A stretch of 63,720 nucleotides of DNA, filler included, from an uncultured bacterium (GCA_964506785.1; 4 parts of 4 records of this genome joined end to end with filler, not necessarily neighbours in it); one strand, 5' to 3'. Shown: positions 5,991 to 63,720, counted from the first letter of the whole stretch. The notes: generated by a model from the sequence alone, not told the origin. A program made the numbers and translations.

Positions 5991-6572
5991 TTATCGCCTG
6001 AGGCAAATTTTTGTCGAAAGGTTTAGCTTCTCTTTATCTTCCAAAACTAAATTTATCTTAATCCCCTCAGGGAGATTTTCGTCTTCCCAGACGGATTGCC
6101 AATTTTCTCCGTCGAAAAAGTGAAAAGAAAGCTCGCTTATTGATTCAGCCATAAGAGACGTTAGTCCGCCTCTTTTTGATTCTTCACCAGGGACAGGAGC
6201 CTCGCGTCTCATCAGGGCCTGCGATTCTTTATCGTAAAAATAACTGATTTCTTTAAGGGTAGTGGAATAAGCAGAAACATAATCTATGCGCGATTCTTCC
6301 CCTATGAATTTAAGATTGGGATTATCGGCAGATGTGAAGGAGCATCTTAATTCTCTGGATAAGCGGGATAAAGCCAAACGGCCGTTTTGGTAGAGGTCTG
6401 ATTTTCCCTCGGCAAATTTTTGGGCGGCAAATCCGGCCTGAAAAGTTTGATAAATGCAGACAAGAACGAAGCTTAAGATTAAAAGAGCTAAAAGAAGTTC
6501 AATCAGGGTGAAGCCTCGTTTGGTTTTCTCGTTTTTTAGTTGACTGGTCAACTGGCTAATCGATTTATTCAT
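5991..6572 (-). CDS. gspJ: Minor pseudopilin GspJ
   Basis: Prepilin motif RG|FTLIELLLAL; C-terminal W...W..LPEGIKINL; lies between gspI and gspK. Confidence 0.85.
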   Translation of the reverse strand: MNKSISQLTSQLKNEKTKRGFTLIELLLALLILSFVLVCIYQTFQAGFAAQKFAEGKSDLYQNGRLALSRLSRELRCSFTSADNPNLKFIGEESRIDYVSAYSTTLKEISYFYDKESQALMRREAPVPGEESKRGGLTSLMAESISELSFHFFDGENWQSVWEDENLPEGIKINLVLEDKEKLNLSTKICLRR

Positions 6573-7093
6573 GGCTCCCGCCTGGCAACGAAAGTTACCA
6601 TATTTAATTTCTGCAATTTATTTCTGACTTTCCAGGAAATATTAAGCTCGATTTTTCTCAGCTCATCTTCGTCCGGGTCTAAATTCTCCGGATGACTCAA
6701 GTTTATTGAAGTGATTTTAGTTTCCCAGTTGAAACCAGGGTGGGTTTCACCAAAATCGCCAGAAGCATCCTTAAGTTCTGAATAATCACTCATGAACTGC
6801 TCCGCTAATTTTCCCTGCGCCAGAAATGTCGCTTTAGTTAAAAAATTGGAAAGCCCCTCGGCCTGTAAAGAGGCTGAAATAATCTGCAGGACTAAAACCA
6901 GCCCCAGGGAAAGAACAGCTAAAGCAACCAAAACCTCCATCAGGGTAAAACCTTGTTTAGAGGATAGTTGACAGCGGATAGGCGGGAGTTTCTTTTTTAA
7001 GAACCGAGTCTTCCGACTATCAGTTTTTTTACTATCTGCTATATCCTTAAACCTAAACGCTATAGGGAAGGATTTATTTTTCTTGGTATTCAT
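6569..7093 (-). CDS. gspI: Minor pseudopilin GspI with an unusually long (~48 aa) leader
   Basis: QG|FTLMEVLVALAVL; ATFLAQGKLAE; LRKIELNISW. Confidence 0.82.
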   Translation of the reverse strand: MNTKKNKSFPIAFRFKDIADSKKTDSRKTRFLKKKLPPIRCQLSSKQGFTLMEVLVALAVLSLGLVLVLQIISASLQAEGLSNFLTKATFLAQGKLAEQFMSDYSELKDASGDFGETHPGFNWETKITSINLSHPENLDPDEDELRKIELNISWKVRNKLQKLNMVTFVARREP

Positions 7094-7099
7094 GGCGAT

Positions 7100-7134
7100 A
7101 CCTAAAAACTTGCACCTCGTAGGTGCAAGTTTTT
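7100..7134. repeat. REP-like palindrome, left copy of a 35-bp inverted repeat flanking the transposase
   Basis: ACCT-AAAAACTTGCACCT-CGT-AGGTGCAAGTTTTT (14-bp perfect stem, 3-nt loop); exact reverse complement of 7820-7854. Confidence 0.95.
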
Positions 7135-7145
7135 TTGGTGGGGTT

Positions 7146-7799
7146 TTATTCTAAAAGTAACTTTTTGATGCTGGCTAATTCCCGTTGATAGTCTATGTGT
7201 GAATTTACAAATTCCCGATAAGTGTCGGGTTTGATACTTAGAAGAACAGAATAATTGCATATTTTATCTTTTTGCGTTACTTTTTCTAGGAATTCTAAAT
7301 AAGATGAGAATTTCCAGTCTTGGGGTTTATCCACTAAGTGTGCAGTTACAGGATTTAGGTGAATATATCGAGTCAAATGAAGAAGTTGTTCATCTGTTTT
7401 TACTCTAACATTTTGGAATCTACCTTCCCATAAAGGCCCTTTTCTTTTATTTTTATGGTTGAAATATTTTGTATAACTGTTAAGGACTTTACTCATAAAA
7501 ATAGAAATGCCTCTATCCTTTACCTGTTTCAAAATTAGGTGGATATGCGTTGGCATGAGACAGTAAGATATCATTTCTACCAAACACTTTTTTGTTAGAA
7601 GGTGTTTTTGGTAAAATTTTTCTCTTTTCTTTATGGTTGAAAAAGCAGAAAATCTAAATGAAGGTTTTTCTATCCTGTAATATCTAATCAAATTTCTCAT
7701 TCTTTCGTACTCAGACTTATTTCTAAATATTTTGAATCCAGAAATGGTTTTCGAAAAGACGTGATAAATTTCACCCTCAACTAACGGAATTTTTCTCAT
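7146..7799 (-). CDS. REP-associated tyrosine transposase (RAYT; IS200/IS605-related Y1 HUH family)
   Basis: IYHVF N-terminus; HUH motif YCLMPTHIHL; YTKYFN...KGPLWEGRF; catalytic YIHLNPV; WKFSSY. Confidence 0.92.
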   Translation of the reverse strand: MRKIPLVEGEIYHVFSKTISGFKIFRNKSEYERMRNLIRYYRIEKPSFRFSAFSTIKKREKFYQKHLLTKKCLVEMISYCLMPTHIHLILKQVKDRGISIFMSKVLNSYTKYFNHKNKRKGPLWEGRFQNVRVKTDEQLLHLTRYIHLNPVTAHLVDKPQDWKFSSYLEFLEKVTQKDKICNYSVLLSIKPDTYREFVNSHIDYQRELASIKKLLLE

Positions 7800-7819
7800 T
7801 TTTGGTTAACATCCAATGC

Positions 7820-7854
7820 AAAAACTTGCACCTACGAGGTGCAAGTTTTTAGGT
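7820..7854. repeat. REP-like palindrome, right copy
   Basis: AAAAACTTGCACCT-ACG-AGGTGCAAGTTTTT-AGGT. Confidence 0.95.
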
Positions 7855-7861
7855 TGAGTTT

Positions 7862-8398
7862 TTATTTGTTATATTCATAGTCGTAAATAGCTACCCGGCT
7901 GGTAGGGGCGCTAATTACTATAGTGTTTCTTTTCTTTTCACCATTTTGAAGGTAAATCCGGCAATTTTCGCTGCCGCCATCAGGGGAAAAATCCAGATGG
8001 GCTTGGCCCATAAAACTTTCCCCCCGGGGAGTGATAATTTTTAAGAATTCGATATCCCGGCCGAGGGTACGTTCTTTTATTAAAGAGGTAGTAAATTTTG
8101 TAAATTTACCAGTATCATCGATAGATTTTTCTACCCAAAAACCACTTTTTTCTAAGTCAAAATAGATGCGGTATTTTTTCCCTTCGGAAACGCTGTGGAA
8201 ATGAGCAAAACGGATGGTCTGGCTGAGATTGCGGCCGGCTCTTTCTAAACCAACTCCGCGGGAAAATTTTCTAAAATTAGGTAAAGCGAAGAGAGAAAGC
8301 GTGCCGATAATAATAACGACGATAATCAATTCAGTTAAGACAAAGCCGGCCTGCCTTTTAAAATTAATCCCAATTGGTAATGTCATCTCCGCCGCCAT
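7862..8398 (-). CDS. gspH: Minor pseudopilin GspH/FimT-like
   Basis: AG|FVLTELIIVVII; LSQTIRFAH; LDFSPDG. Start moved to ATG 8398 (or 8386), overlapping the end of gspG. Confidence 0.8.
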   Translation of the reverse strand: MAAEMTLPIGINFKRQAGFVLTELIIVVIIIGTLSLFALPNFRKFSRGVGLERAGRNLSQTIRFAHFHSVSEGKKYRIYFDLEKSGFWVEKSIDDTGKFTKFTTSLIKERTLGRDIEFLKIITPRGESFMGQAHLDFSPDGGSENCRIYLQNGEKKRNTIVISAPTSRVAIYDYEYNK

Positions 8399-8852
8399 CT
8401 TTTTTATCCGGACCAAGAGATTGCAAATCATAGTCTGAGTTATGTCCCCCCGGGGATTTATACAGATAGTCACTTACCCAGGGATCCTTGGGTATTGTTT
8501 TTTTAAGATATGGGCCTTGCCAATTGGGTGTCTCTTTTGGCTGGGTGCGCAGGGCGGCTAAACCTTCTTCTGTCGTCGGGAAACGGCCATTATGAAGTTC
8601 AAACATGTCCAGGGCTAAGGAGAATATTTCTAATTGGGACCTGGCTGCTTCAATACGGGCCTTTTTGGAAGTCCCGACAAAGCGAGGCAGAACAACCGAG
8701 GCTAAAATACCAATGATAATTATAACCAGCATCAATTCAATTAAGGTAAACCCCGTTGGAAGTCCGAACGAGAAACGGGGCATCTTGCTTTTCCTGGCAA
8801 AGGGGAACCGTATTTCTAACGGGGCAAAGCCGATTTTATTTCTATCGCTCAT
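8364..8852 (-). CDS. gspG: Major pseudopilin GspG
   Basis: G|FTLIELMLVIIIIGILA; ALDMFELHNGRFPTTEEGLAAL; WQGPYL; DPW; DDITNW. GGAGG Shine-Dalgarno upstream. Confidence 0.96.
   Translation of the reverse strand: MSDRNKIGFAPLEIRFPFARKSKMPRFSFGLPTGFTLIELMLVIIIIGILASVVLPRFVGTSKKARIEAARSQLEIFSLALDMFELHNGRFPTTEEGLAALRTQPKETPNWQGPYLKKTIPKDPWVSDYLYKSPGGHNSDYDLQSLGPDKKDGGGDDITNWD
8751..8831. repeat. Palindromic element in frame within the gspG leader
   Basis: CCCCGTTGGAAGT (8751-8763) pairs with ATTTCTAACGGGG (8812-8824), 11/13 matches. It lies between two GF(A/T) codon sets spaced 78 nt apart. Confidence 0.75.
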
Positions 8853-8910
8853 AAGATTTCCTCCTTCAGTTGTCAGTGGATTCTAATCAGGTTTTCTTTC
8901 TTCAAAAACC

Positions 8911-8972
8911 AAAAGACAGAAGTCAGAAGATAGAAGTTAGAAAAATCTATGTTCTTTTTTCTGCTATCTATC
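8911..8972. repeat. Degenerate heptamer tandem tract with a loosely complementary arm, gspF/gspG junction
   Basis: AAAAGAC AGAAGTC AGAAGAT AGAAGTT AGAAAAA followed by TCTATGTTCT...TCTGCTATCTATC. Confidence 0.75.
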
Positions 8973-8987
8973 CTTTTTAATCTGCAT

Positions 8988-10205
8988 TTACCCAAGGGCT
9001 CCAGTGATTTGAAAAATTGGAAGAAGCATTGCCAAAACAATAAAACCAACGATAATTCCCATGAATAAAATGATAGCTGGTTCAAGGAGACTCGTTGTAG
9101 TTTTTAAGTTGTTTTCCAGTTCTCTCTCATAACTGGAAGCAATTTGATGGAGACTCTTCTCTAAATTTCCGCTTTCCTCACCTACGGCAATTATATTAGA
9201 AACTATCGGCGGGAAAAGCTTGCTTTGCCTTAACGGGGAAGCTAATCCTTGTCCGTCTCTAACTTTTTCTTTAATTTTGTCAAGTTTCCGGGAGACAACT
9301 TCATTGGCAACAGTTTCTTTCGAAAGTTCCAGAGACCTGAGGATGGGAACTCCATTGGAAATTAAATTGCCGACAGTAAGAGCAAAGCGGGAGATAATCA
9401 GGCTCTGAAAAATTTTCCCAGCCACCGGCAGGTTTAATTTTAAGCGGTCGAGTCGTAATCTTCCTTCAGCGGTATGGCTGTATTGACGAAAGGCGACGAT
9501 AGAGACAAAAATGACCGCTAAGGTAATAATGCCGCCCCAGCCATGGAAAAATTGAGAGACAGCAATTAAAACCTGGGTGGGAAGGGGAAGAGTTTGGCCT
9601 AAGTCTTCAAACATTATAACAAACTTAGGAATTACTGCCGTTAGAAGAAAAATAATTGTTGCCAGGGCAACTAACAGCATCGCCAGAGGATAAGCCATAA
9701 TCGAATGCAGTCGGGAGGTTAATTCCCTCTGTTTTTCCAGTAAGTTAGAAATATGAGTGAGGATTTTTTCTAAATCACCGCCGGCTTCTCCAGTTTTTAC
9801 CAAGCTTATATATAAAGGCGGAAAAAGCCTGGAGTATTTAGCTAAGCTTTGCGATAAAGGCTGGCCGTCTTGAACCTGATTTTGTATATCTTTAATAACT
9901 TCCCTGAATTTCAGATTAGTGGTTTGCTCTATCAAAACAGAAAAGGCCTGGGTTAAAGAGGTGCCGGCCCGGAGTAAATCCGAAAGCTGTCTGGTAAAAA
10001 CGACTAAATCCCGCCTGCTTATCTTTTTAATAATTATTTGAGCGGGACGATTTTTTCTGGAGGCCTGGATTATTTCTTCGATTTTTATGGGATAGAGCGC
10101 CTGCCGGCGAAGTTGCTCAATAAGAACTTTTTTGCTTTCGGCTTCAATGATTTCCGAAACTAATTGTCCCGATTTAGTTTTAGCCCGATAAGAGAAAGTC
10201 GGCAT
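8988..10205 (-). CDS. gspF: T2SS inner-membrane platform protein GspF
   Basis: MPTFSYRA; FTRQLSDLL; GEAGGDLE; GEESGNLE; LLEPAIILFMG...AMLLPIF. Confidence 0.95.
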   Translation of the reverse strand: MPTFSYRAKTKSGQLVSEIIEAESKKVLIEQLRRQALYPIKIEEIIQASRKNRPAQIIIKKISRRDLVVFTRQLSDLLRAGTSLTQAFSVLIEQTTNLKFREVIKDIQNQVQDGQPLSQSLAKYSRLFPPLYISLVKTGEAGGDLEKILTHISNLLEKQRELTSRLHSIMAYPLAMLLVALATIIFLLTAVIPKFVIMFEDLGQTLPLPTQVLIAVSQFFHGWGGIITLAVIFVSIVAFRQYSHTAEGRLRLDRLKLNLPVAGKIFQSLIISRFALTVGNLISNGVPILRSLELSKETVANEVVSRKLDKIKEKVRDGQGLASPLRQSKLFPPIVSNIIAVGEESGNLEKSLHQIASSYERELENNLKTTTSLLEPAIILFMGIIVGFIVLAMLLPIFQITGALG

Positions 10206-11728
10206 TATTTGTTTATTTCCTCTACATGGGTTACCCGAAGTACTTCCTCAATCGAAGTCAATCCCTGATGGACTTTTTCCCAGCCGTCATCTCTGAGGGT
10301 TCTCATCCCTGAGGCGATTGCTTGCTGTTTAATGCGGCTGGTAGCAGTTTTCTCTAAAATAAGATTTTTTGTCTGTTCGGTGATTATAAGCAGTTCATAA
10401 ATAGCCGTTCTTCCTTTGTAACCGGTGTGCCGGCAGTCCTCGCAGCCCCTCCCGCGCCAAAATTTTTCTTTTCGCCATTTTACGGGATAATTAATTGCCG
10501 CCAGGAAATCTTCTCTTACCTTGTAGATTTCTTTGCACTTTGGACAGATAAGCCGCACCAAACGCTGGGCAATGACTGTTTTAAGGGATGAGGAAACCAG
10601 ATAGGGTTCAATGCCCATGTCAATCAATCGGGTAATCGCTCCCGGAGCATCGTTGGTGTGCAGGGTGCTAAAAACCAGATGGCCGGTTAAGGATGCCCGA
10701 ATAGCAATTCGGGCTGTGTCTAAATCGCGGATTTCTCCTATCATAATGACATCGGGATCCTGGCGAAGTATCGAACGCAGACCGTTAGCAAAAGTCAAGT
10801 CAATTTTTGGTTTAACTTGAATCTGATTGACTCCTTTGAGTTGATACTCAATTGGGTCTTCAATGGTAATAATCTTTTTATCTGAAGAATTAATTTTGCT
10901 GAGGCAGGCATAGAGAGTGGTCGTTTTGCCGCAGCCGGTCGGGCCGGTTTCTAAAATAATTCCGTAAGGAGTGGTAATCAAAGAGGAGATAACATTTAAA
11001 TCACCTTGAGATAATCCCAACTCTTCTAAATCCAGCATGAGGTGGCTGCTGGGAAGAAGGCGTAAATCAACACTTTCGCCAAAAAGAGTAGGGACAATGG
11101 AAACGCGGATATCAATATCGGCATCGGCAATTTTTAAGCGGATACGTCCATCTTGAGGAAGTCTTTTCTCAGCAATATTTAAATCAGCCATAATTTTAAT
11201 CCGGGAAATAAGGGCGGCTTGAAATCGTTTAATCGCCGGTGGGGTAGAGGTTTCATGCAGTAGCCCGTCAATCCGGTATCTTACCTTAAGCTCATCTTCA
11301 AAAGGCTCAATGTGAATATCGGTAGCTCTATCGCGGTAAGCCTCAAGAATTATCTGATTGACAAATTGGATGATAGAGGCATCTCCGGCTAATTTTTCAA
11401 TATCTTTAATTTCCTCTTCTTTGACTTCTAAACGGGGGTCCGCTTCCTCAACCATTTTTTCCATGGTTTCTGCTCCAATGCCGTAAAATTGCCGGATGGC
11501 TTTGGTGATTTTATCCTCACCAGCGGCAATGATTTCTACTTCGCTGCCCAGGAGAAGGCGCAGGTCATCTAAAGCCTCTAAATCGCGGGGATTAGCCATG
11601 GCTACCACCAGGCGGTTATCAATAATTTTTACCGGGATAAGTTTGTACTGATAAGCAAACTTGGCAGGGATTTTTTCAATTGCCAGAGGGTCGATATCTC
11701 CCTGAGAAAATTTTTCTGAAGCGCCCAT
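10205..11728 (-). CDS. gspE: T2SS assembly ATPase GspE
   Basis: ATDIHIEP; EKRLPQDGR; Walker A GPTGCGKTT; TIEDPIE; LRQDPDVIMIGEIRD; Zn motif CPKC...GCEDC. Confidence 0.95.
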   Translation of the reverse strand: MGASEKFSQGDIDPLAIEKIPAKFAYQYKLIPVKIIDNRLVVAMANPRDLEALDDLRLLLGSEVEIIAAGEDKITKAIRQFYGIGAETMEKMVEEADPRLEVKEEEIKDIEKLAGDASIIQFVNQIILEAYRDRATDIHIEPFEDELKVRYRIDGLLHETSTPPAIKRFQAALISRIKIMADLNIAEKRLPQDGRIRLKIADADIDIRVSIVPTLFGESVDLRLLPSSHLMLDLEELGLSQGDLNVISSLITTPYGIILETGPTGCGKTTTLYACLSKINSSDKKIITIEDPIEYQLKGVNQIQVKPKIDLTFANGLRSILRQDPDVIMIGEIRDLDTARIAIRASLTGHLVFSTLHTNDAPGAITRLIDMGIEPYLVSSSLKTVIAQRLVRLICPKCKEIYKVREDFLAAINYPVKWRKEKFWRGRGCEDCRHTGYKGRTAIYELLIITEQTKNLILEKTATSRIKQQAIASGMRTLRDDGWEKVHQGLTSIEEVLRVTHVEEINK

Positions 11729-11764
11729 CTCAACTGCCTTCCCTTTCTTTAACGTATAGCCTAT

Positions 11765-11793
11765 AATTTACTATATGTCTCCATGGAAGTCAA
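11765..11793 (-). promoter_or_regulatory. Putative sigma70 promoter of the gsp operon
   Basis: Minus strand reads TTGACT-17 nt-TAAATT. Confidence 0.55.
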
Positions 11794-11812
11794 TAGGAAT
11801 AAGAAAAACACT

Positions 11813-11840
11813 CCAACCCTCATTACTGGGGGAGGGTTGG
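11813..11840. repeat. Inverted repeat between divergent promoters
   Basis: CCAACCCTC-10 nt-GAGGGTTGG, perfect 9-bp arms. Confidence 0.6.
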
Positions 11841-11860
11841 TTTGATTCGAATCTTCATTC

Positions 11861-11889
11861 TTGACCAAAAGCGGGACTCATGGTAAGTT
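11861..11889 (+). promoter_or_regulatory. Putative sigma70 promoter of the HprK-like/ABC cassette
   Basis: TTGACC-17 nt-TAAGTT with a TGn extended -10. Confidence 0.5.
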
Positions 11890-11926
11890 AAATGGAGAAT
11901 TTTGGTCCCCAACAGGGTAGTTTAAG

Positions 11927-12742
11927 ATGAAAAAAACAGTTAAATTAGATATTGCCAGGCTTATTTGTTCTTTGAATGGAGAAGGGGGGGAGGGGGTTTT
12001 AAACCAGATAGAACATTCCTATCGACATTTTGCGGTCTCTGGCGAAGGGAAGGGAGATATGTCTCTTAATTTCCAGGTTACCCCTTTTTTTGGCGAAGGA
12101 AAAAATCCAAAGATTTCTTTTGATTCTGAACGGAACTCTCTCCAAATGGAAACCGACAAATTTAATCTCTGGTTCAATTGCCAACTTAATGAAGGTAAAG
12201 CCGTAATTTCAAGCGATAACCCTCTTTTATCTTTAGGGACGATACTTCGCAATATCTATACCTGGCATCTGATGAATGGAGATGGCATTGTTTTTCATGC
12301 CAGCGGTTTAATAAAAGATGGTTCAGCCTATATTTTTATTGGCCCTTCAAAAAGCGGGAAAAGTACGGTGAGTAGACTGTCATCACATTTGACCCTTATT
12401 AACGATGATATAATTTTTTTAAGGGAGGGAAAAGACGGCTTCCGTATTTTTACTACCCCTCCCTGGAGCTGCCAGATAAAAGTCCTGGAGGCCAATATCT
12501 CTGTTCCTCTTCAGGCTCTGTTTCTTTTAAAAAAAGATAAAAGAAATTTTCTGGAAAAACTTTCTCACAAAGAAGCCCTTAGTCTGTTAATGACTTCTCC
12601 GTACTTACCTTTATCGACTGCCAATTTGGAAAGATTAATCAGCCGATTTCAAAGGCTTATAGCCCAAATCCCCACTTATAAATTACATTTCTTACCTCAG
12701 GTTTCATTTTGGCAGTGTATTAAAAATGAATTATCTCATTAA
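11927..12742 (+). CDS. HPr kinase-like P-loop protein (ScmC/lasso-cluster kinase-like)
   Basis: FHASGL..DGSAYIFIGPSKSGKST (His + Walker A); LINDD; TPPW; IPTYKLHF. Confidence 0.75.
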   Translation: MKKTVKLDIARLICSLNGEGGEGVLNQIEHSYRHFAVSGEGKGDMSLNFQVTPFFGEGKNPKISFDSERNSLQMETDKFNLWFNCQLNEGKAVISSDNPLLSLGTILRNIYTWHLMNGDGIVFHASGLIKDGSAYIFIGPSKSGKSTVSRLSSHLTLINDDIIFLREGKDGFRIFTTPPWSCQIKVLEANISVPLQALFLLKKDKRNFLEKLSHKEALSLLMTSPYLPLSTANLERLISRFQRLIAQIPTYKLHFLPQVSFWQCIKNELSH

Positions 12743-13526
12743 AACTTTTAACCTTACTAAAGAGTTCTTTCCGGCTAAAGGATTGCCTGAGTTTCTATTG
12801 CATCCTTTAAAACGTTCAAAGAAAATCTCGGCTCTTAATAGAATTAATCTTGAAATTCCAGAAGGAAAGATATTTTCCCTGCTCGGGCCCAATGGAGCAG
12901 GGAAAACCACTTTGATTAAAATTTTATGCGGCCTTATTTTACCTACCAGCGGCACTTCCGAAGTTTGCGGTTATGATGTTACAAAAGAAGGAACAGAGGT
13001 AAAGAACCTGGTCGGGCTGGTCACCGGTGAAGAACGCAGTTTCTATTGGCGCTTGACTGGGCGGGAAAATCTTCATTTCTTTGCGGCACTTCATGGATTT
13101 TCTTCTAAAAAGACCAATGAAAGAGTAAATTTTCTCTCCCAATTTCTTTCCCTTACGGATTTTTTGAATAAACGCTTTCAGGAATATTCAACAGGTATGA
13201 AACAGCGTTTAGCTATTGCCCGGAGCCTCCTTAATGACCCAAAGGTTTTATTTTTGGATGAACCGACTAAAAGCCTTGACCCGGAAAGTGCTGAAGAGCT
13301 GCGCCGCTTTATTTTAGAAAAATTGGTTAAAAAGGAAGGAAAGACAATTTTTTATACTACCCATCAGTTGAGTGAAGCAGAATTCTTTTCCGATTATATC
13401 GCCATTATGAAGAAAGGGCAAATTAAAATCTTCGGGAGTCTTACAGAGCTGCATCAAAAAAATCTTTTTAGCGGCGAGTTTACCTTAAAGAAATTTTATC
13501 ATGAAATTGTGAAGGAGGGAGTTTAG
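12726..13526 (+). CDS. ABC transporter ATP-binding protein (ABC-2 type)
   Basis: GPNGAGKTT; YSTGMKQR signature; LFLDEPT; H-loop TTH. Confidence 0.95.
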   Translation: MNYLIKTFNLTKEFFPAKGLPEFLLHPLKRSKKISALNRINLEIPEGKIFSLLGPNGAGKTTLIKILCGLILPTSGTSEVCGYDVTKEGTEVKNLVGLVTGEERSFYWRLTGRENLHFFAALHGFSSKKTNERVNFLSQFLSLTDFLNKRFQEYSTGMKQRLAIARSLLNDPKVLFLDEPTKSLDPESAEELRRFILEKLVKKEGKTIFYTTHQLSEAEFFSDYIAIMKKGQIKIFGSLTELHQKNLFSGEFTLKKFYHEIVKEGV

Positions 13527-14336
13527 TTGCCTTTCCGAAAAATGTGGGCTTTTATCAGGAAGGACTTTCTTCTTTTTTCAAGCTACCGCCTTTCTTTTAT
13601 TCTAAGCTGGACGAGCATTCTTTTAGAAATTTCAATTTTTTATTTTATCGCCAAGCTTTTTGGGAAAGAGGCAAGCTCTTATCTTCAAAATTACGGCGGG
13701 GAATATTTCCCTTTTGTCCTTATTGGGATTGCATTTTCAAGCTATTTTTATACTTCTCTGAGAAGTTTCTCCCGGGAACTTCGTCAAGAACAGATGATGG
13801 GGACTTTAGAAGCAATACTGGTTAGCCCGACTAGTATTCCTTTAATTATTATTTCTTTGAGCCTTTGGAATTTTTTGTATACTTCTATTTCGGTAATCGT
13901 TTATTTAGTTTTTGGTGTAGCCATATTCGGGCTTGATTTATCTTTGGCTAACTTTGGCCTGGGCTTAGTGATATTGTTTCTGTCGATACTATCTTTTAGC
14001 GCCCTGGGTATCATTTCTGCCAGTTTCATTTTAGTCTTTAAACGGGGCGATCCTATTACTTGGCTCTTAGGAACGGCTTCTGCTCTTATGGGCGGAGTTT
14101 ATTTCCCGATTGCCGTTCTCCCTCAAGGATTACAGGCTATATCCAGGTTTTTGCCGATTACCTATGCCCTGAGAGCAATGCGTCATGTTTTACTTCAAGG
14201 TTTTGCAACCAGGGATGTCTTTTTAGAAATAGCTGTTCTTCTCACTTTCTGTCTGTTCCTTTTTCCCGCGAGTATATTTATTTTTAGATATGCGGTGAAA
14301 AAAGCCAAGATAGATGGAAGCCTGGTGTATTATTAA
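13527..14336 (+). CDS. ABC-2 type permease
   Basis: Multiple TM helices; EQMMGTLEAILVSP; GVYFPIAVLP...LPITYA. TTG start directly after the ATPase stop. Confidence 0.92.
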   Translation: MPFRKMWAFIRKDFLLFSSYRLSFILSWTSILLEISIFYFIAKLFGKEASSYLQNYGGEYFPFVLIGIAFSSYFYTSLRSFSRELRQEQMMGTLEAILVSPTSIPLIIISLSLWNFLYTSISVIVYLVFGVAIFGLDLSLANFGLGLVILFLSILSFSALGIISASFILVFKRGDPITWLLGTASALMGGVYFPIAVLPQGLQAISRFLPITYALRAMRHVLLQGFATRDVFLEIAVLLTFCLFLFPASIFIFRYAVKKAKIDGSLVYY

Positions 14337-14354
14337 GCAGAAAAAAAAGAATTA

Positions 14355-15407: not shown

Positions 15408-15573
15408 TTGAAAATTAAGGATAAAATTCTACTCGAGATATAGCCTGAGCTCTACCTTTGCGGCTATTTCTTTAATGAGTACTTAAATTTTGGTTGCTTT
15501 TTTATCAAGAATATATTAGTATTATTTCTAGGGCTATAGCACATTTACAGTCTATATAAAGGGAGAAAATGTT

Positions 15574-54565: not shown

Positions 54566-54586
54566 TTTCTATTTAAGTTACTCCCC

Positions 54587-54698
54587 AATCTATTCGCTAT
54601 CAGCCACTTTGGCTCTTAGCTCATAGTCAAAATCTTTTCTCCCACATCTTTCATCCTACTTTCTGTCATCTGTCTTCTGTTTTCTGTAATCTGTTCTG
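54587..54698. repeat. Intergenic repeat mosaic with a (TCTGTNN)5 heptamer tract
   Basis: TCTGTCA TCTGTCT TCTGTTT TCTGTAA TCTGTTC (54662-54696). AATCTATTCGCT is shared with 45794-45805, and a 20-mer with 47929-47948. Confidence 0.85.
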
Positions 54699-54701
54699 AT
54701 A

Positions 54702-55709
54702 TCACCGGTGCCCAAAAAAGATTTCCTTAAAAAATATTTTCAAATTCGGCCTGGGGATACCTAAAAAAGTAGGCCGTTTAAGCATATCACATCCCCTGCA
54801 TGGCTCTAAAGTAGCCACCTTTCTCTCTCTCATTGCCCTCCGCAGAGATATATAGGGTTTGTCAACCCATATATAAGCAAGAGAATTATTATTTACACTG
54901 CCCATAATGAGACGGCCAAAAAAGTCCTGCGGACAGGGAGAAACCTCACCGTTCCAGAGAATAACCATAGCGAACCAGGGAAAGGTACAGGCAGAAAATT
55001 TCACTGACTTGGCTGTTTTTTCATTCTCTTTTGACGCATAGCTCCCTCCCCAATTATGCGGTGATTTTACCACAAACCTATTCAGGTGTAAACCATAAAG
55101 CTTATCCTTTAGCTCTTGCTTCTCCGTTTGGTAATTCCCTGTTTTTACCTCATCGAGCTCCATAGTTTCAAAAATAGTAAAAGGGCTAACTTTTCCTAAA
55201 TCTTCCTTCAAACGGAGGAAGTTAGAAATATTATCAATAGTCGCTTTAAAATTAGCCGGCGGACGGATTTTCTCATAGGTCTCCGGCGTAAATCCATCGA
55301 AGGAAAAAGAAATAAAATCCAATCCGGCATCAATAATTCCCCGACCTTTTTCTCCATCAAGAAGGGTAGCGTTGGTATGCAACCGGGTGTAAAGACCGGC
55401 TTTCTTAGCGTAGTCAACCATTCTTGCTAATTCTGGGTGAAGCAGGGATTCCCCCCGATGATGCAGATTTATGTCATACACAAATTTTTTCGCTTCATCG
55501 ATTATTTTTTTAAAAAGTTCAAAGTCCATAAGACCGCCTTTGATAGAATCGGGACTGCTTTGCGGACACATCACACAGCGCAAATTACAGGCGCTGCTTA
55601 ATTCGATCCAGAGCCGAATGGGCAGATAATTTAATTTCTCCTCCTGCCGTCGGTAGCTGGAGGCAATCTGTGATAATCTTTGTCCTCTTTTTAATTTATT
55701 CATTTTCAC
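54702..55709 (-). CDS. Radical SAM protein with SPASM/twitch domain
   Basis: CNLRCVMC; C-terminal CTFPW...PCPQD...CRGC. Confidence 0.9.
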   Translation of the reverse strand: MKMNKLKRGQRLSQIASSYRRQEEKLNYLPIRLWIELSSACNLRCVMCPQSSPDSIKGGLMDFELFKKIIDEAKKFVYDINLHHRGESLLHPELARMVDYAKKAGLYTRLHTNATLLDGEKGRGIIDAGLDFISFSFDGFTPETYEKIRPPANFKATIDNISNFLRLKEDLGKVSPFTIFETMELDEVKTGNYQTEKQELKDKLYGLHLNRFVVKSPHNWGGSYASKENEKTAKSVKFSACTFPWFAMVILWNGEVSPCPQDFFGRLIMGSVNNNSLAYIWVDKPYISLRRAMRERKVATLEPCRGCDMLKRPTFLGIPRPNLKIFFKEIFFGHR

Positions 55710-55731
55710 CCGTCCGTTAATTTTCTTTTCC

Positions 55732-55776
55732 CTATACGCTACCCGCTGTACGCTATTCGCTAACCGCTATACGCTA
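55732..55776. repeat. Heptamer tandem tract (CTATACG-like) x6
   Basis: CTATACG CTACCCG CTGTACG CTATTCG CTAACCG CTATACG CTA. Confidence 0.9.
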
Positions 55777-55777
55777 A

Positions 55778-57217
55778 TTAGCGACGCCCCCGGCCAATTT
55801 TTCTTTTAAAGTAGCTCTTTCCCGCTATGAACAAATGCTTTAAATCGCTAAAAGACCTCACTCCTTTAATGGCTTCGGGAATTCTCTTCCAGATTGAAAT
55901 TTTGCTTTCTACCGCCCAATCAACGGCTAATTGCGAAAGCTCGGTCCAGCTTAAAGTGTCGATAAAAAGCGGCGCCTGACCGTGAGCGGCTCCAACCGAG
56001 ATGCTTTTCTGGCTTTTAAGATTCGACCAGGAAAAATTATCGGTTAAAATATTTTTTTCCTTGGCTATTTTCTCGATTCTGGTCCCGGGATAAATTCGCA
56101 AAAAACTTAACGAAACTTGTCCGCCGATTTCCCGCATTAAATCCAGGGTCATCTGCGCTTCTTTCATCGTTTCCGAAGGGAAACCGATGATATAACTGGG
56201 ATTTTTGACAATTCCTAATTCATCAAGCCATCTGGAAAGGCACCTGACCTGTTCCAGGGTTATTTTTTTTCCGCAAACTTCGTCTAAAATTCTTTGCGAA
56301 CCGGATTCAACGCCAAAAAATATTTTAAAACAGCCGGCCTCTTTCATCGCCGTAAGCAGTCCCTTATCAACCGTATCGGCCCGGATGGAACAGGTAAACT
56401 TTATATTAAGATTCTTTTTCACAATCAAATCGCAAATTTTAAGTACCCTCTCTTTACTCATGGTAAAAGTATCGTCATAAAACCATATCGTTCTGATTCC
56501 GGTATTTCGAATAATCTCTTCTAATTCGGCAATGATACTCTCTGGAGATCTCGCCCGCCAGAGTCTCCCTGACATCTGGCTGGTAATACAAAAAGAACAG
56601 CCAAAAGGACATCCCCGGCTGGTTATTAGATGGGTAGTTTGGCGCCAGCCTTCTCCCGGCACAAAAAGCCGGAAATTATATTTCTCTATCGGCACCAATT
56701 CCCGGGCCGGAAAAGGAAGATTATCCAAATCCTGAATTAGAGAAGCATCGGGATTTTGGCGGATTTTTCCACCCTTGCGATAGGTAATCCCGGAAATATC
56801 TTCTATCTTCAATTTATTTTCATACGCGCGGCATAAATCCAGAAGAATGTTTTCTCCTTCCCCGCGGACGACCATATCAACTGCCGGATTGTAAAGCAAG
56901 GTATCTCTATCGCAAAAGGTAGGATGGGGGCCGCCTATTACCACCCAGCTTTCCGGAGAAACCTTTTTTGCCGCCCGGGAGGCGGCAAAAGATTCGAAGC
57001 GGAATTCCGTTAAACAGGTAATCCCGATAATTTGGGCCTGGGCTTTTTTTATCTCCCTCTTCAAACTGCGCCAGGAAAGCCTGTTTACCGAAGCATCGAT
57101 TACCTCTACTTGAATCCCCTCTCTTTTTAAATATGCGGCTAAAGAAATAAGGCCTAAAGAAGGCAACGGCTCTTTGGAAGTAAATCCTTTAGGTGGAAAA
57201 ATCAGTAATACTTTCAT
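55778..57217 (-). CDS. B12-binding domain radical SAM protein
   Basis: PSLGLISLAAYL; GGPHPT; GEGE; TSRGCPFGCSFC; DDTFT; GVESGS; PGT. Confidence 0.93.
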   Translation of the reverse strand: MKVLLIFPPKGFTSKEPLPSLGLISLAAYLKREGIQVEVIDASVNRLSWRSLKREIKKAQAQIIGITCLTEFRFESFAASRAAKKVSPESWVVIGGPHPTFCDRDTLLYNPAVDMVVRGEGENILLDLCRAYENKLKIEDISGITYRKGGKIRQNPDASLIQDLDNLPFPARELVPIEKYNFRLFVPGEGWRQTTHLITSRGCPFGCSFCITSQMSGRLWRARSPESIIAELEEIIRNTGIRTIWFYDDTFTMSKERVLKICDLIVKKNLNIKFTCSIRADTVDKGLLTAMKEAGCFKIFFGVESGSQRILDEVCGKKITLEQVRCLSRWLDELGIVKNPSYIIGFPSETMKEAQMTLDLMREIGGQVSLSFLRIYPGTRIEKIAKEKNILTDNFSWSNLKSQKSISVGAAHGQAPLFIDTLSWTELSQLAVDWAVESKISIWKRIPEAIKGVRSFSDLKHLFIAGKSYFKRKIGRGRR

Positions 57218-57240
57218 AGTTTTTACCAGCGGCTTCTCCC

Positions 57241-57288
57241 CTGCCCGCTATCCGCTAAACGCTATACGCTCTTTTTTCCCTATACGCT
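57241..57288. repeat. Heptamer tandem tract (CTATACG-like)
   Basis: CTGCCCG CTATCCG CTAAACG CTATACG, plus TTTTCCCTATACGCT shared with 55726-55740. Confidence 0.85.
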
Positions 57289-57293
57289 GTCTT

Positions 57294-58483
57294 TTATCCA
57301 TCCAGCCACTCCTGGGCCCAGATTTCAAAAACTATCAGCGCCCAGAGGCGGTGGCTATTGTCCTTTTTTTTCTCCAGATGCTCCTTAATCAAGGTTTGAA
57401 TATATCCCTCGTTGAATAAACCGCGTTTTTTTATATTTTCTGGCGAAAGAGATTCCAAAAGCAAGGGCTTAAATTCATTTCGCAGCCAATTTTTAACCGG
57501 GCTGCTAAAGCCTTCCTTGTGTCTATTAATAATCTCCGCCGGTAAAAATTCGCTCATTGTTTTCTTCAGGATATATTTGGTTCGAAACCGCTTTAATCTC
57601 AATTGAGGAGGAATTCCCGTAATTAACTCCACCACTTTATTATCCAAGAACGGAAATCTGGCCTGCATTGAATTCGCCATACTCATCTGGTCGACCTTTA
57701 CCAGTCCGGCATCCGGAAGATAAGTCCTCAAATCAACATACTGAAGCTGGCTGGGGCAAGGTAAATCCTTAGCCTGGTTAAAAATTGAACGGACAGGACG
57801 ATAAGAATCCAAACCATTTAACTTTTGAATTAAAAAAGGTGAATAAAGTGCTTTTTTATCCAGAGGGCTAAAATTAATCATCCAGCGATGATGTTTAATA
57901 TCAGAAGGTAAATTCAACCCTTCAAACAAACGCCGCATCCGGTTAACCATCCCCTTCTTTTTCCCCCGGGGGGCAATACCCGCCAGATATCTCTTCATAA
58001 CCCCGGGCAGCCACTCCAGCCGGCCGGCTAAACTTTGGGCCAGATAGGTATCGTATCCGGCAAACAATTCATCACCGCCGTCGCCGCATAGAACGACCTT
58101 GACATAATCTTTGGCCAATTGAAAAGCCAGAAAAGTGGGAATAATCGAGGTGTCAGCCAAAGGCTCATCAAGGAATTTAATTAATTGCCGGGCTAAATCC
58201 GCTGTCTTAGAGGATAAAAACAGTTCATGATGTTCGGTTTTGAACCGCTCGGAAATTAAGCGGGCATAATTTAATTCGTTATAACTTTTATCTTCGAAAC
58301 CAATAGAAAATGTTTTAATTGGCTCCTGGCCGATTTGGCTCATTAAAGCCACAATTGTACTTGAATCGAACCCGCCGCTTAAAAGAACTCCCAGCGGAAC
58401 ATCAGCTAAGAGATTTAACCCCACAGACTCTTTCAGGGTCTTCAGTATTTTCTCTTTTAATAAGAGTTCGTTTTTAACCGGCC
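57294..58483 (-). CDS. Asparagine synthase (AsnB)-like amidotransferase, C-terminal part (5' cut by contig edge)
   Basis: [41 protein letters not shown]. The frame stays open to the contig edge. Confidence 0.9.
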
Positions 58484-58583: not shown

Positions 58584-59356
58584 TAGAAGGTGTCGATACC
58601 CGGGCTTTAACCCGGCATATTAGATTACAGGGAGCGATGAAGGCGATGATTTCTACCGAGGATTTGGATGATAAAAGCTTGGTGAAAAAAGCCAAAGCTT
58701 CACCCGGACTGATTGGATGCGATTTGGTCAGGGATGTAACTTCCGAAGAAATCCACTATTGGAGTAAAAAAGGCAAATATAAGGTAGTAGTTATCGACTG
58801 CGGGGTCAAGTTTAACATTTTAAGAGAGTTAGCCAATAACGGCTGCGAGGTAATAGTCGTTCCGGCAAAGATTACAGCTAATCAGGTTTTAGCGATGAAG
58901 CCAGACGGTATTTTACTTTCCAACGGTCCGGGAGACCCGTCAGCCTTGCCCTATGTAGTTAAGACCGTAAGGAAACTGCTTGGCAAAACGCCAATTTTTG
59001 GTATATGTTTGGGGCACCAAATACTCGGCTTATCCTTAGGCGGAAAAACATTTAAACTTAAATTTGGCCATCACGGAGGAAATCATCCGGTCAAAGAACT
59101 AAATTCCGGCAAGATCTCTATTACCGTTCAAAACCATGGTTTCTGTGTGGATATAGAATCTTTGAAAAAAGGAGACCTTGAAATAACACATATTAATCTT
59201 AATGATAATACCCTGGAAGGAATGCGACATAAGAAGCTTCCAGTATTTTCAGTACAGTTTCATCCCGAGGCCGGCCCCGGTCCTAATGATGCCAGATATC
59301 TTTTCGAAGAATTTATTGAGATGATGGAGCAAAAAAAAACAGATAACCGAATATAG
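58584..59356 (+). CDS. carA: Carbamoyl-phosphate synthase small subunit (5' cut)
   Basis: EGVDTRALTRHIR upstream of the listed Met; LSNGPGDP; GICLGHQ; QNHG; QFHPEAGPGP. Confidence 0.96.
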
Positions 59357-59395
59357 AGGGCAGAAAAAAATCCTGCAATCTGACTTCTGTCGTCT
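59340..59395. repeat. Degenerate CAGA-type heptamer arms (inverted) at the carA/asnB junction
   Basis: CAGATAA CCGAATA TAGAGGG CAGAAAA ... CTGCAAT CTGACTT CTGTCGT. Confidence 0.6.
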
Positions 59396-59424
59396 TTAGT
59401 CTAACTGAACGAAGTGAGGTTATG

Positions 59425-61302
59425 GTGTGCGGAATTTGTGGAATCGTAAGTTATAAGGCAGGTGAGCCGGTAAAAGAGGAAGAGATAAAGGAAATGCTCA
59501 ATCGTATTGTTCACCGCGGGCCTGACGACTGGGGAATTTATTGCAAAATTCCCCACGTTGGTTTGGGAATGAGAAGGCTTTCAATAATCGATTTGGTCAC
59601 CGGGAAACAGCCGATACATAATGAAAATGAGACCATTCAGATTGTTTTTAACGGAGAAATCTATAATTTCAAGGAGTTGCGAGAAAATTTAGAAAAAAAA
59701 GGACACCAATTTTATACCTCTTCGGATACCGAAGTAATTGTCCATCTTTATGAGGATTATGGTATAGATTGTCTTGAATCCTTACGGGGAATGTTTTCCT
59801 TTGCCCTCTGGGATGCCGGCGAAAAAAGACTTTTTCTTACCCGGGATAGATTGGGTATTAAACCTCTACATTATACTATAATGGGTAAAAAAATCATTTT
59901 TGCTTCAGAGATAAAGTCTATTCTTTCATGTTTCGGAGTGGACAAAAAAATAGATTTTTCGGCTCTGGATAGGTATTTATCCTTCGAATACACTCCAGCG
60001 CCACAGACTATGTTCAAAACAATAAAAAAACTTTTGCCCGGGCACTACCTTCTTTTCAAGGAGGGAGAGGTAGTTATAAAAAAATACTGGGATATTAATT
60101 TCAATGAAGATATTAATGTTAATGAAGAGAAAATTCTGGAAACCCTGAAAGAGTCGGTGAGCTATCGTTTGGTGAGTGATGTTCCTTTGGGGGCATTTTT
60201 AAGCGGCGGGATTGACTCCAGCTCTGTAGTTGCTTTGATGAGTAAAGTTATGAATACCCCGGTAAAAACTTTCTCTATCGGATTTGAAGATAAAAGTTAT
60301 AACGAATTAAATTATGCCCGTATAATTGCCCGCCGGTTTAATACCGAACATCATGAATTTATCCTTAAGCCAGACATACCGGATTTAATCAAGAAGTTGA
60401 TTGGGTATCTGGATGAACCTTTGGCTGATTTTTCCTGTATCCCTACCTATTTGGTTTCCCAGATGGCCCGCCAATATGTAACTGTTGCTCTCTCCGGGGA
60501 TGGGGGAGACGAGCTTTTTGCCGGGTACGAGTCTTATGCAGCCGAGAAAATGGCAGGCTATTATTGCCGGCTTCCCAAAATTTTTCGCCACGGAGTAATT
60601 GCTCCTTTACTAAGAAGAATCCCGCCCAGCCCTCAAAAAAGGGGATGGATAAATTATCTGCGCCGTTTTACTGCCGGAGAGAATCTCCCGGCAGATTTGA
60701 AGCACGCGCGTTGGATGATATTTCTTGCCGAAAAAGACAAAAAGAAACTTTATACCAAAAATTTACAGGGTGAACTGAAAAAGGCTGATACTTATAGACC
60801 TTGGAGAGAGTATTTTCGAGCCTCAAGTAATTTTGATTCTTTAAGCCAGCAGCAGTATGTAGATTTAAAAACGTATCTCGCCGAAAACATCCTCCTCAAG
60901 GTAGATAGAATGAGTATGGCCAATTCCTTGGAGGTAAGGGTTCCGATTCTCGACCATAAACTCGTAGAATTGGTGGCTGGTCTTCCTTCTTCTTTGAGAT
61001 TGAAAGGTTTTTCTTCGAAGTACTTATTTAAAAAAGCGATGGGTGAGATTTTACCGGAGGAGGTAATAAATCGTCCCAAACAGGGATTTAGTATCCCCGT
61101 CAAAAACTGGTTTAAAGAAGATTTAAAAGATTTACTCCTTGAAGTCTTGAGTGAGGGAGAAATAAATAAGAAAGGCTTGTTCGATTACGGGTATATTAGA
61201 CAACTTATCGAAGACCATCTAAAGGCAAGAGAAAATCATAGCCACATTCTCTGGGCTTTGATGATTTTTAACCTTTGGCAGAACAAATATCAGGCAAATT
61301 AA
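59425..61302 (+). CDS. asnB: Asparagine synthase (glutamine-hydrolysing), class II amidotransferase
   Basis: GTG start gives M-CGICG (Ntn cysteine); [41 protein letters not shown]. Confidence 0.93.
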
Positions 61303-61304
61303 TT

Positions 61305-63720
61305 ATGCCCAAAAGGATAGATTTAAAAAAGATTTTAATTATTGGTTCCGGGCCGATTATTATCAGCCAGGCCTGTGAGTTCGATTATTCCGGCACACAG
61401 GCTTGCAAAGCGCTAAAAGAAGAAGGTTTTAAGGTCGTGCTTTTGAATTCAAATCCGGCGACGATAATGACCGATCCCGAGATAGCCGATAGCACCTATA
61501 TCGAGCCAATAACACCCGAGGTTCTGGAGAGGATTATAGCTAAAGAAAGACCTGATGCATTGCTTCCTACCCTGGGCGGCCAAACAGGCTTGAATACGGC
61601 CATTAAAGCAGCTGAAGCCGGCATATTGGATAAATACAAGGTGAAGATGATTGGCGCAGACTATGAGGCGATAAAAAAGGCCGAGAACCGGGAGTATTTT
61701 AAAAAATCCATACAGAAGATAAAACTTGATTTGCCGAGAAGCAGTCTTGCTTATAATATGCGAGAGGCAAAAGATGCCTTGAGAGAAATAGCCCTCCCGG
61801 TTATTATCCGCCCGAGTTTCACTCTCGGTGGAACAGGCGGAGGAATAGCCGAGACAGAAGAAGAGTTTGAAAAAATAGCAGAATTGGGCTTGAAAAACAG
61901 TATGGTAAGCGAAATTTTGATAGAAGAATCGGTGCTTGGCTGGAAAGAATACGAATTGGAGGTAATGAGAGATAAAAAGGATAATGTGGTGATAGTCTGC
62001 TCCATAGAAAATTTCGATCCTATGGGTATCCATACAGGGGATTCAATCACCGTTGCTCCGGCTCAAACCCTAACCGATAAAGAGTATCAAAGGATGAGAG
62101 ATGCGGCCATGGCGATAATAAGAGAAGTAGGTGTCGAAACCGGCGGCTCGAACATCCAATTTGCGGTCAATCCCAAAAATGGGAAAATGGTAGTTATTGA
62201 GATGAATCCCAGGGTTTCTCGAAGTTCGGCGCTGGCCAGTAAGGCAACAGGCTTTCCCATCGCGAAATTTGCGGCAAAACTGGCTGTCGGTTATACCCTT
62301 GATGAGATACGAAATGACATTACCAAAGAAACCCCGGCGTCATTCGAACCAACAATAGATTATTGTGTCGTAAAAATCCCGCGATTTACCTTTGAGAAAT
62401 TTCCCGAAGCAAAGGATGTCTTGGGTATATCGATGAAATCGGTGGGAGAAACAATGGCAATCGGAAGGACCTTTAAAGAAGCTCTTCAGAAGGGACTTCG
62501 CGGTTTGGAAATTGGACATTCCGGGCTTGATAACAAACTCGATTATCGTAATATCCCTGACGATAAATTAATGCTTAGATTAAAAGAACCTAACGCATCA
62601 AGGATATTTTACATAAAGTATGCTTTACAGAAAGGCATGGGTGCAGATGAAATTGTGAATATTACCAAGATTGATCCCTGGTTTATCGATAATATAAAAC
62701 AGATAGTAAAGCTTGAAAATCAGATGACAGAAGTCAGAACACAGAAGCCAGATGTTGTTTGTCATCTGCCTTCCGGGCTTTTGCTCAAAGCCAAGCAATA
62801 TGGTTTCAGTGATATACAGATTGCCGATTTAACAGGTTCCGACGAATTATCGGTGAGGGAATTAAGAAAGAAACAAGGAATTAAAGCGATATTTAAATTA
62901 GTAGATACATGTGCGGCAGAGTTCGAAGCCTATACCCCGTATTATTATTCAACTTATGAAATGGAGGATGAAACCCGGCGTTCAAAAAGGGAGAAAATAA
63001 TTATACTTGGCGGTGGTCCGAACAGAATTGGTCAGGGGATAGAATTCGATTATTGCTGCTGCCATGCTTCTTTTGCGCTTAAGGAACTGGGATTTGAAAC
63101 GATTATGGTCAATTCCAATCCGGAGACAGTTTCGACAGATTATGACACATCAGATAAGCTATACTTTGAACCGCTGACCTTTGAAGACGTTATGAATATC
63201 GTCGATAAAGAGGAACCTCACGGTGTAATAGTTCAGTTTGGCGGACAGACTCCGCTTAACTTAGCCCAACGGTTAGAAAATGCCGGTGTACCTATAATTG
63301 GCACTTCGGTTGAATCTATAGACACGGCCGAGGACAGAGACAAATTCGCCCGACTTATAAAGAAGTTAAAGCTTAACCAGCCGCAAAACGGCTCGGCCAA
63401 GTCAAAGGAAGAGGCAAAGAAAATTGCCGAGCGTATCGGATATCCTGTCCTGGTAAGGCCGTCGTATGTATTAGGCGGCAGAGCGATGAAAATAGTTTAT
63501 AATGAAGAATCCCTTGATGAGTTTATAAGAGAAGCAAAAGATACTTCCGAGGAACACCCCATGCTTATAGATAAATTTTTAGAGGGTGCTGTCGAGGTGG
63601 ATGTTGATGCGTTATCCGATGGTGACATTACGGTAATCGGCGGTATAATGGAACATATAGAAGAGGCTGGCATTCATTCGGGAGATTCAGCCTGTGTGTT
63701 GCCGCCCCACACTTTAGGTA
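61305..63720 (+). CDS. carB: Carbamoyl-phosphate synthase large subunit (runs off the window end)
   Basis: Hand translation [37 protein letters not shown]; later [17 protein letters not shown] and [12 protein letters not shown]. Confidence 0.97.
62721..62776. repeat. In-frame heptamer tract/hairpin inside carB
   Basis: CAGATGA CAGAAGT CAGAACA CAGAAGC CAGATGT followed by TGTCATCTG (reverse complement of CAGATGACA); encodes [18 protein letters not shown]. Confidence 0.85.

Follow-up and report, generated by a model that had tools for sequence, protein, structure and literature searches.

We analyzed a window of 63,720 nt from the genome of an uncultured bacterium (GCA_964506785.1), which consists of four contigs and N spacers (1-19831, 19932-39214, 39315-58483 and 58584-63720), and identified degenerate tandem arrays of 7-nt units in it. 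On balance, we consider these tracts to be arrays of the short tandemly repeated repetitive (STRR) type, which most likely represent gene-less members, either decayed or non-autonomous, of a cassette system with heptamer arms around a four-helix-bundle (4HB) gene and which became fixed at tolerated sites. 4HB refers here to TIGR02436/PF05635, the family named "23S rRNA intervening-sequence protein". The arrays are genuine, their periodicity is specific to 7 nt, and they are lineage-specific additions to the genome. Relatives carry the same arms with and without a 4HB gene. From this we infer that the arrays of the organism studied here derive from, or are spread by, 4HB cassettes.

For identification of periodic tracts, the whole window was scanned at lag 7 in 28-nt windows with at least 18 matches, and 30 first-order Markov simulations served as background. 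The scan revealed seven tracts, compared to a simulated mean of 0.47 and a maximum of 2. Tandem Repeats Finder reported period-7 rows with 3.4 to 9.3 copies at 6 of the 10 tracts listed in an earlier, sequence-only reading of this DNA. In addition, the 20 gene spacers with a length of 45 nt or more (2147 nt in total) were compared with 200 dinucleotide shuffles of the same spacers. A period-7 tract is present in 5 of the 20 spacers, while the shuffles yield 0.10 on average and 1 at most. None of these spacers reaches the threshold for any other period from 4 to 12. Because of this difference the enrichment over AT-rich intergenic DNA is real, which bears out the sequence-only reading on this point. 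In 1.75 Mb from 130 related loci, 66 period-7 tracts were found, and 13, 24, 15 and 17 for periods 5, 8, 10 and 11, respectively. The earlier list of about nine or ten period-7 tracts can be kept in part: seven stand out, whereas 6538-6563, 45771-45805 and 59340-59395 are weak or not periodic. An 8-nt period had also been proposed for the gene junctions, and no spacer scores for it. Over the whole window 3 period-8 tracts were detected (0.43 expected). All of them are located in coding DNA and none inside any spacer; they look like chance by eye and were rejected. The described placement was found again, as the tracts are located in junctions between genes of the same strand or within open reading frames (ORFs) on contigs 1, 3 and 4; contig 2 is free of them.

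Another explanation is that the tracts are periodic by chance or are ordinary phase-variable microsatellites of AT-rich spacers, and three of the ten listed tracts are indeed weak. Chance is excluded because of the spacer-only shuffles. Furthermore, the units are degenerate rather than identical and the arrays show no indels in the metagenome contigs described below. We regard this explanation as extremely improbable.

Four unit families occur in the window. CAGANNN is present at 4 sites, TAGCGNN at 3-4 sites, TAATGTG at 1 site with nine units and the AGCCA/TGGCT hairpin at 2 sites. Seen on the sense strand, the arrays begin at the upstream stop codon or a few bases past it and head for the next ribosome-binding site. 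Folding revealed a complementary arm at four places (8911-8976, 6958-7041, 62705-62785 and 54590-54626; z -2.3 to -3.7) but not at 55732-55776, 57241-57288, 45771-45805 and the CACATTA run (z +0.46 to -0.46). Two inverted arrays of one 7-nt unit are found in the gspF/gspG spacer, the pseudopilin leader (6958-7041) and the CarB loop, but not in the TAGCG and CACATTA arrays or at 54644-54704. The proposed hairpin arms thus exist at these four places, whereas the TAGCGNN, CACATTA and long CAGANNN runs are one-armed.

The link to 4HB genes was examined in relatives. In one of them (L011), a 121-aa ORF between etfA and gspE is flanked by inverted GTAGCGA arrays. It encodes a TIGR02436 protein (50.1 bits, cut-off 24). 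We collected 51 4HB genes from 13 genomes, 39 in a first set and 12 from four further genomes. Period-7 arrays flank both sides in 29 of these 51 cassettes and one side in 7. Within 200 nt of the 39 4HB ORFs the arrays reach 2.28 per kb, compared to 0.34 per kb farther off. In 18 of the 29 two-sided cassettes, the left unit and the reverse complement of the right one differ by no more than one base, compared to 14 of 1027 mismatched pairs. The link between heptamer arms and 4HB genes, which the sequence-only reading had brought up, is therefore real in relatives. Across genomes, protein identity correlates with unit distance (rho -0.23, 572 pairs), and 0 of 1000 label permutations match this value. 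The closest cross-genome pair (68% identical; L251 and L244) carries CAGAAG/CAGAAT arms in both cases, which shows that cassettes with the CAGAAG unit of the window exist. 4HB gene and arms travel together. In the nine genomes behind the type II secretion system (T2SS) loci, 0 to 9 4HB genes were found per genome. The counts are 8, 9, 3 and 9 with array-rich T2SS loci and 1, 0, 3, 1 and 6 with array-poor ones, a difference in the expected direction but from a sample too small to weigh. In the literature searched, a link of heptamer arrays to the 4HB family was found only in a paper on the Coxiella intervening sequence (PMC4990558).

Filled and empty states occur side by side in one relative (G001), where the arm pattern matches 44 times and a control once. 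Its GTAGCGA four-unit arms frame a 4HB gene on two contigs (C81 and C57) and other heptamer hairpins on two more (C11 and C15), and they face each other across a loop of 11-13 nt at C16 and C44. Filled and empty copies have the unit order in common, therefore copying and not local slippage is indicated. At C11 and C15 (L161 and L165), the hairpins nested between the GTAGCGA arms are built of other units and are accompanied by GC-rich palindromes, which suggests that the loop between the arms is an insertion target. The T2SS loci of eight genomes contain 23 arrays without a gene; 5 of these have 13-25 nt in common with arms of cassettes from the same genome, and only 2 reach 13 nt with cassette arms of any other genome. 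Arms that match a filled cassette of the same genome were found in G001, G003 and G004.

The window arrays are additions of this lineage. Among 62 related loci in which both genes were found, 44 have a compact gspF/gspG junction, an approximate count since it was aligned to the GspG start of the window. In two relatives (L026 and L050) this junction holds heptamer arrays of units other than those of the window. An array was also found within the carB gene of another relative (G002, L205), where an 8-mer array, (TCAAGGGG)x4, lies in frame in the same loop as window 62721-62776. The inter-domain linker of this CarB protein contains inverted in-frame 8-mer arrays of the GTCAAAGA and CTCTGACA types, which form a 30-residue insert.

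For analysis of array stability, a metagenome contig (L081) was compared with window positions 45781-58483. It is 99.7% identical across 12.7 kb, and the 34 mismatches and 2 gap openings reported by BLAST are all outside the five arrays. Contigs from four runs of four studies span every contig-3 array. Among the differences listed for them, no indel and no substitution lies inside an array. The arrays are therefore not phase-variable microsatellites on this timescale, and the view of the sequence-only reading that they are no ordinary slippage microsatellites holds, also with regard to the degenerate units. Other contigs of the same metagenomes carry look-alikes of the CACATTA array of 42-49 nt, and in the run data the CAGA and CGCTA arrays have loose ends. 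Arrays are therefore dispersed in these communities. At 56684-56772, within the B12-radical-SAM gene, the window differs from L081 and run X5 by about 25 substitutions and two small indels. This cluster is probably a recombination patch because the surrounding 12.7 kb are otherwise almost identical. One X5 contig joins positions 53766 and 57018 and skips 3251 bases, with only 35 letters on its shorter side; either a chimeric assembly or a variant with a deletion could account for it. Past the end of contig 3, a spacer of the same organism (L081 6985-7089) carries about 13 period-7 units starting from a stop codon. This array folds as a hairpin (z -3.1).

For the organism studied here, it is plausible but unproven that the window tracts are empty or non-autonomous copies of such cassettes, and several results weigh against it. 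No 4HB gene or remnant was detected in the window by jackhmmer, a 22-seed profile hidden Markov model or tblastn, nor in the 8.7 kb added by L081. In the 130 related loci a 4HB gene occurs only in L011, at etfA/gspE. The comparison of orthologous junctions proposed earlier revealed no filled allele at any junction covered: among 62 relatives, none of the gspF/gspG junctions holds a 4HB gene. Neither filled/empty nor length polymorphism was found in L081 or the four other metagenome assemblies. About half of the window tracts show neither a complementary arm nor a fold, therefore "empty site" does not describe those tracts. The idea of empty sites is correct in so far as filled and empty arms are real in relatives, but it fails for the one-armed half and lacks a filled allele. 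In a shared-string test against the arms of 39 cassettes, which has low power since shuffles already share about 10 nt, the TAGCG, CACATTA and AGCCA tracts share sequence at chance level only. The CAGAAG arrays share 13 and 12 nt with cassette arms, which is marginal, as 8 and 12 of 200 shuffles reach these values. Among the loci fetched with the pattern CAGAWG, only 1 of 30 contains a 4HB gene, with arms of another unit. Four of 23 genomes with this pattern have no TIGR02436 match, including the one with most CAGAWG matches (47, G049), although these metagenome-assembled genomes (MAGs) may be incomplete. The co-variation of gene and unit does not show that the 4HB protein acts on the repeats.

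Of the 79 genomes from the closest relative's phylum, 23 carry the pattern CAGAWG itself, as hairpin pairs but also as solo arrays ahead of start codons. A 4HB gene was found in 19 of these 23 genomes and in 34 of the 56 others (Fisher 0.07). Array count and 4HB count correlate over the 79 genomes (rho 0.35, p 0.001, uncorrected for phylogeny). The control for this pattern, its reversed form, is not clean, as it amounts to a rotated CAGAAGA unit.

The main rival of the cassette reading is that the heptanucleotide repeats are autonomous. They would originate in place by slipped-strand events that favour 7 nt and serve as mRNA platforms for a post-transcriptional regulator, and 4HB cassettes would be separate elements which land in arrays or borrow them. 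We consider this rather unlikely, but a number of features fit it. The one-armed TAGCGNN arrays are all sense-oriented: in plus-strand spacers CGCTA occurs 11 times, 10 of them on contig 3 with its minus-strand genes, and TAGCG 0 times. The arrays stop about 20 nt ahead of start codons, as reported for the TAACTGA repeats (PMC4679880), and a conserved core with one or two variable positions is consistent with a recognition site. In relatives, CAGAAG arrays are mostly solo and located ahead of start codons, one genome (G049) has many arrays and zero 4HB genes, and there are many more gene-less arrays than cassettes, with 0.34 arrays per kb at a distance from 4HB genes. However, the orientation of CAGANNN relative to transcription is mixed within the window, as the array at 54644-54704 is sense and that of the gspF/gspG spacer antisense, and one array lies within a coding loop (CarB). 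The unit order common to filled and empty G001 copies, the zero 7-nt length variation in L081 and the four-run contigs and the lack of a candidate regulator also speak against autonomous repeats.

The positions of the single tracts are given in Table 1. Among the CAGANNN arrays, the CarB array is 81% identical to 8905-8941 (family D3). Its segment 62721-62776 codes for 16 residues in a loop of the CarB oligomerisation domain, which is 6 aa longer than in E. coli CarB and in the nearest relative. The gspF/gspG array has CAGAAGTCAGAAG in common with the left arm of the cassette in L251. The array at 54644-54704 begins at the stop codon of a radical-SAM/SPASM gene and contains GACAGATGACAGAA, the unit printed for the Coxiella intervening sequence. 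The tract at the carA/asnB junction is weak, with a fold z of -0.63, and remains below the 18/28 threshold of the scan. The TAGCGNN array at 55732-55777 fills the spacer starting from the stop codon of the B12-radical-SAM gene, and the one at 57241-57290 is 85% identical to 55743-55775 (family D5). At 45771-45805 a period-7 autocorrelation of 0.42 tops that spacer, yet the tract is nearer to period 14, falls short of the 18/28 threshold and has no fold (z -0.06). The two copies of the AGCCA hairpin element, at 47914-47950 and 54590-54621, are 88% identical (family D17). Its 11-mer GCTATCAGCCA has 3 exact occurrences in the window and 5 matches with at most one mismatch, compared to 0.47 expected. 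The CACATTA array is enclosed by a 10-bp outer stem.

Table 1. Heptamer tracts and neighbouring type II secretion genes of the window. Fold z is the predicted RNA fold score of the tract or spacer; p7, period-7 autocorrelation; TRF, Tandem Repeats Finder.
Feature	Position	Strand	Description	Lag-7 scan tract	TRF period-7 row
Pseudopilin leader tract	6958-7066		Imperfect hairpin 6958-7041 (fold z -3.7) and CTANNNN x5 run 7028-7066	7028-7066	
gspF/gspG spacer hairpin	8911-8976		CAGAAGN x4 (+ strand, 8911-8942) and degenerate inverted arm; fold z -2.3	8894-8949	8913-8942
GT2/beta-propeller spacer tract	45771-45805	sense (-)	2-3 units, TAGCGAA/TGGCGAA core; weak		
AGCCANT/TTGGCTC inverted mini-arrays, dispersed hairpin element copy 1	47914-47950		Hairpin in fold		
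CACATTA x9 array (sense TAATGTG)	47951-48018		One-armed; 9.3 copies (TRF); scan 23/28	47935-47991	47953-48017
TAGCGAA unit and AGCCA hairpin copy 2	54587-54630		Hairpin 54590-54626; spacer fold z -3.0		
CAGANNN array, about 9 units	54644-54704	sense (-)	One-armed; scan 22/28	54644-54704	54662-54694
TAGCGNN x6	55732-55777	sense (-)	One-armed; 6.4 copies; p7 0.56; fold z +0.46	55725-55780	55732-55776
TAGCGNN array, interrupted	57241-57290	sense (-)	One-armed; asnB/B12-radical-SAM spacer; fold z -0.33	57232-57281	57246-57270
CAGA.../TCTG... inverted tract	59340-59395		carA/asnB junction; weak; 65% match to family D3		
In-frame CAGANNN x5 array	62705-62785	+	CarB; 11-bp stem; fold z -2.4	62716-62762	62721-62752
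gspG	8364-8852	minus	Contig 1		
gspF	8988-10205	minus	Contig 1		
gspE	10205-11728	minus	Contig 1		

The pseudopilin ORF at 6569-7093 has a 46-codon leader which consists mostly of the repeat hairpin and the CTANNNN run, and the ATG at 7093 is its sole in-frame start. A leader of 46 residues ahead of the prepilin motif GFTLME is unusually long. The listed tract at 6538-6563 was rejected as a period-7 tract; it is a 7-bp palindrome in leader-peptide codons of a pseudopilin.

The 6958-7066 tract adjoins a repetitive extragenic palindromic (REP) hairpin at 7100-7134. Here, an intact RAYT-type Y1 transposase gene was identified at 7146-7799 on the minus strand, inside the type II secretion operon (REPtron 7100-7854). 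The protein shows the HUH motif HIHLIL and the tyrosine motif RYIHLNP and matches NF047646 with 67.6 bits. The gene lies between perfectly complementary 35-nt hairpins (7100-7134 and 7820-7854; fold z -5.0 and -6.3). The statement of the sequence-only reading that neither cargo gene nor catalyst is present is thus correct for the 4HB gene, but the transposase had been overlooked. An intact RAYT within an inverted pair of REP hairpins, one of which abuts a tract, could mean that the tracts are REP/REPIN-like elements spread by this transposase. However, the REP sequence is not built of heptamers. Its palindrome occurs only at 7109-7129 and 7825-7845 in the whole window, so that both copies flank the RAYT gene, and a RAYT origin is unlikely because of this confinement. 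None of the heptamer tracts carries REP, and contigs 3 and 4 have arrays without it. Nothing ties the RAYT to the heptamers, and we consider this origin very unlikely.

Several known repeat systems resemble the window arrays. STRR heptamers were reportedly described in filamentous cyanobacteria by Mazel and colleagues in 1990. To our knowledge, such intergenic heptamer arrays have been known for about 35 years and were never explained, and heptamer repeats are among the commonest unexplained repeats of bacterial intergenic DNA. Both systems show tandem 7-nt units, several unit families per genome, an intergenic location and no known function. However, STRR are cyanobacterial, whereas the lineage of the window is non-cyanobacterial (its GspE relatives are labelled Omnitrophota). 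Unlike in STRR, the window units are degenerate and often paired in hairpins, and one array lies in frame in a gene. Palindromic elements of Rickettsia, said to have been described by Ogata and colleagues in 2000, are located in frame in protein genes, have a length of 100-150 bp and are not built of heptamers. As in the CarB loop, hairpin-forming repeat DNA is tolerated in frame in protein surface segments. The CarB insert is only about 18 nt longer than the loop of relatives, compared to 100-150 bp in Rickettsia. REP/REPIN-RAYT systems are similar as short palindromic intergenic repeats, and the window has a RAYT with its own REP pair, but its heptamer tracts lack REP sequence. The class of contingency loci, with identical units and variation in copy number, does not apply, as the units are degenerate and the arrays show no indels in L081 or in the contigs of the four runs.

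TAACTGA intergenic direct repeats occur in marine Beggiatoaceae, cyanobacteria and a few Bacteroidetes. Most of them are located shortly before start codons, mixed with related 7-mers, and a post-transcriptional role was proposed (PMC4679880). They are similar to the window arrays as heptamer direct repeats between genes. Membership in this family was rejected since the unit is at chance level in the window, with 6 single copies compared to 5.94 expected and zero in tandem. Cyanothece strains differ by 7-nt indels in these repeats, according to the same paper (PMC4679880), whereas none were seen in the window arrays in L081 and the four runs. In the 23S rRNA intervening sequence of Coxiella burnetii, (GACAGAT)3 GACAGAA is located ahead of the S23p ORF. 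The first repeat is a site of RNase III cleavage, and strains differ in repeat number (PMC4990558). This is the CAGA heptamer unit of the window next to a gene of the 4HB family. However, as described there, the Coxiella element is located in rRNA together with the S23p ORF, whereas the window arrays are located in mRNA operons and a coding loop without an ORF.

Under the cassette reading, the full form would be a small cassette in which inverted arrays of one 7-base unit enclose a 4HB gene on both sides. The hairpins in the gspF/gspG spacer, the pseudopilin leader and the CarB loop would be gene-less forms with paired arms, and the TAGCGNN, TAATGTG and long CAGANNN runs would be solo arms or solo arrays. 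Insertion would occur at tolerant sites such as spacers of co-directional genes, a cleaved signal leader or a surface loop of CarB, and the arrays would now be fixed and not hypervariable. On polycistronic RNA, paired arms may form long imperfect stems that, purely by analogy with the Coxiella heptamers, might be substrates of RNase III. If the reading is true, paired arms are predicted to split operon mRNAs. More tentatively, and with somewhat less than even confidence, STRR heptamers in general might be the cis-acting arms of mobile cassettes with Avd-like 4HB proteins that cross phyla, with one unit per protein lineage. The window tracts would then be non-autonomous progeny that spread into operon spacers, were co-opted as coding sequence (CarB loop, pilin leader) and cut operon transcripts like rRNA intervening sequences.

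The window does not define a new class of repeats. It adds arrays inside CarB in two lineages and array stability at the population level, and several unit families are now shown in an uncultured lineage. The arrays behave as insertions, with a conserved enzyme among their in-frame targets. Genes of the 4HB family, which has no known function, are framed by the same arms in relatives.

The gene content of the window differs between the contigs. Contig 1 carries a type II secretion operon on the minus strand, which includes pseudopilins, gspK and pilMN. The nearest relatives of its GspE protein among species genomes are one MAG at 63% and Omnitrophota-labelled MAGs at 55-59%. No Rfam family matched at gathering thresholds anywhere in the window. 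Promoter and terminator scans of 45000-58483 gave the same counts as shuffles, and the arrays contain no sense-strand terminator. Contig 2 carries leu/ilv, cstA, PolX and alr genes. On contig 3, a cluster of glycosyltransferase, radical-SAM and AsnB genes was found, with every gene on the minus strand. Contig 4 carries carA, asnB and carB. The asnB paralogues of contig 3 (57294-58424) and contig 4 (59422-61302) show 86-89% nucleotide identity in patches. As seen in L081, the contig-3 copy is full length with 623 aa.

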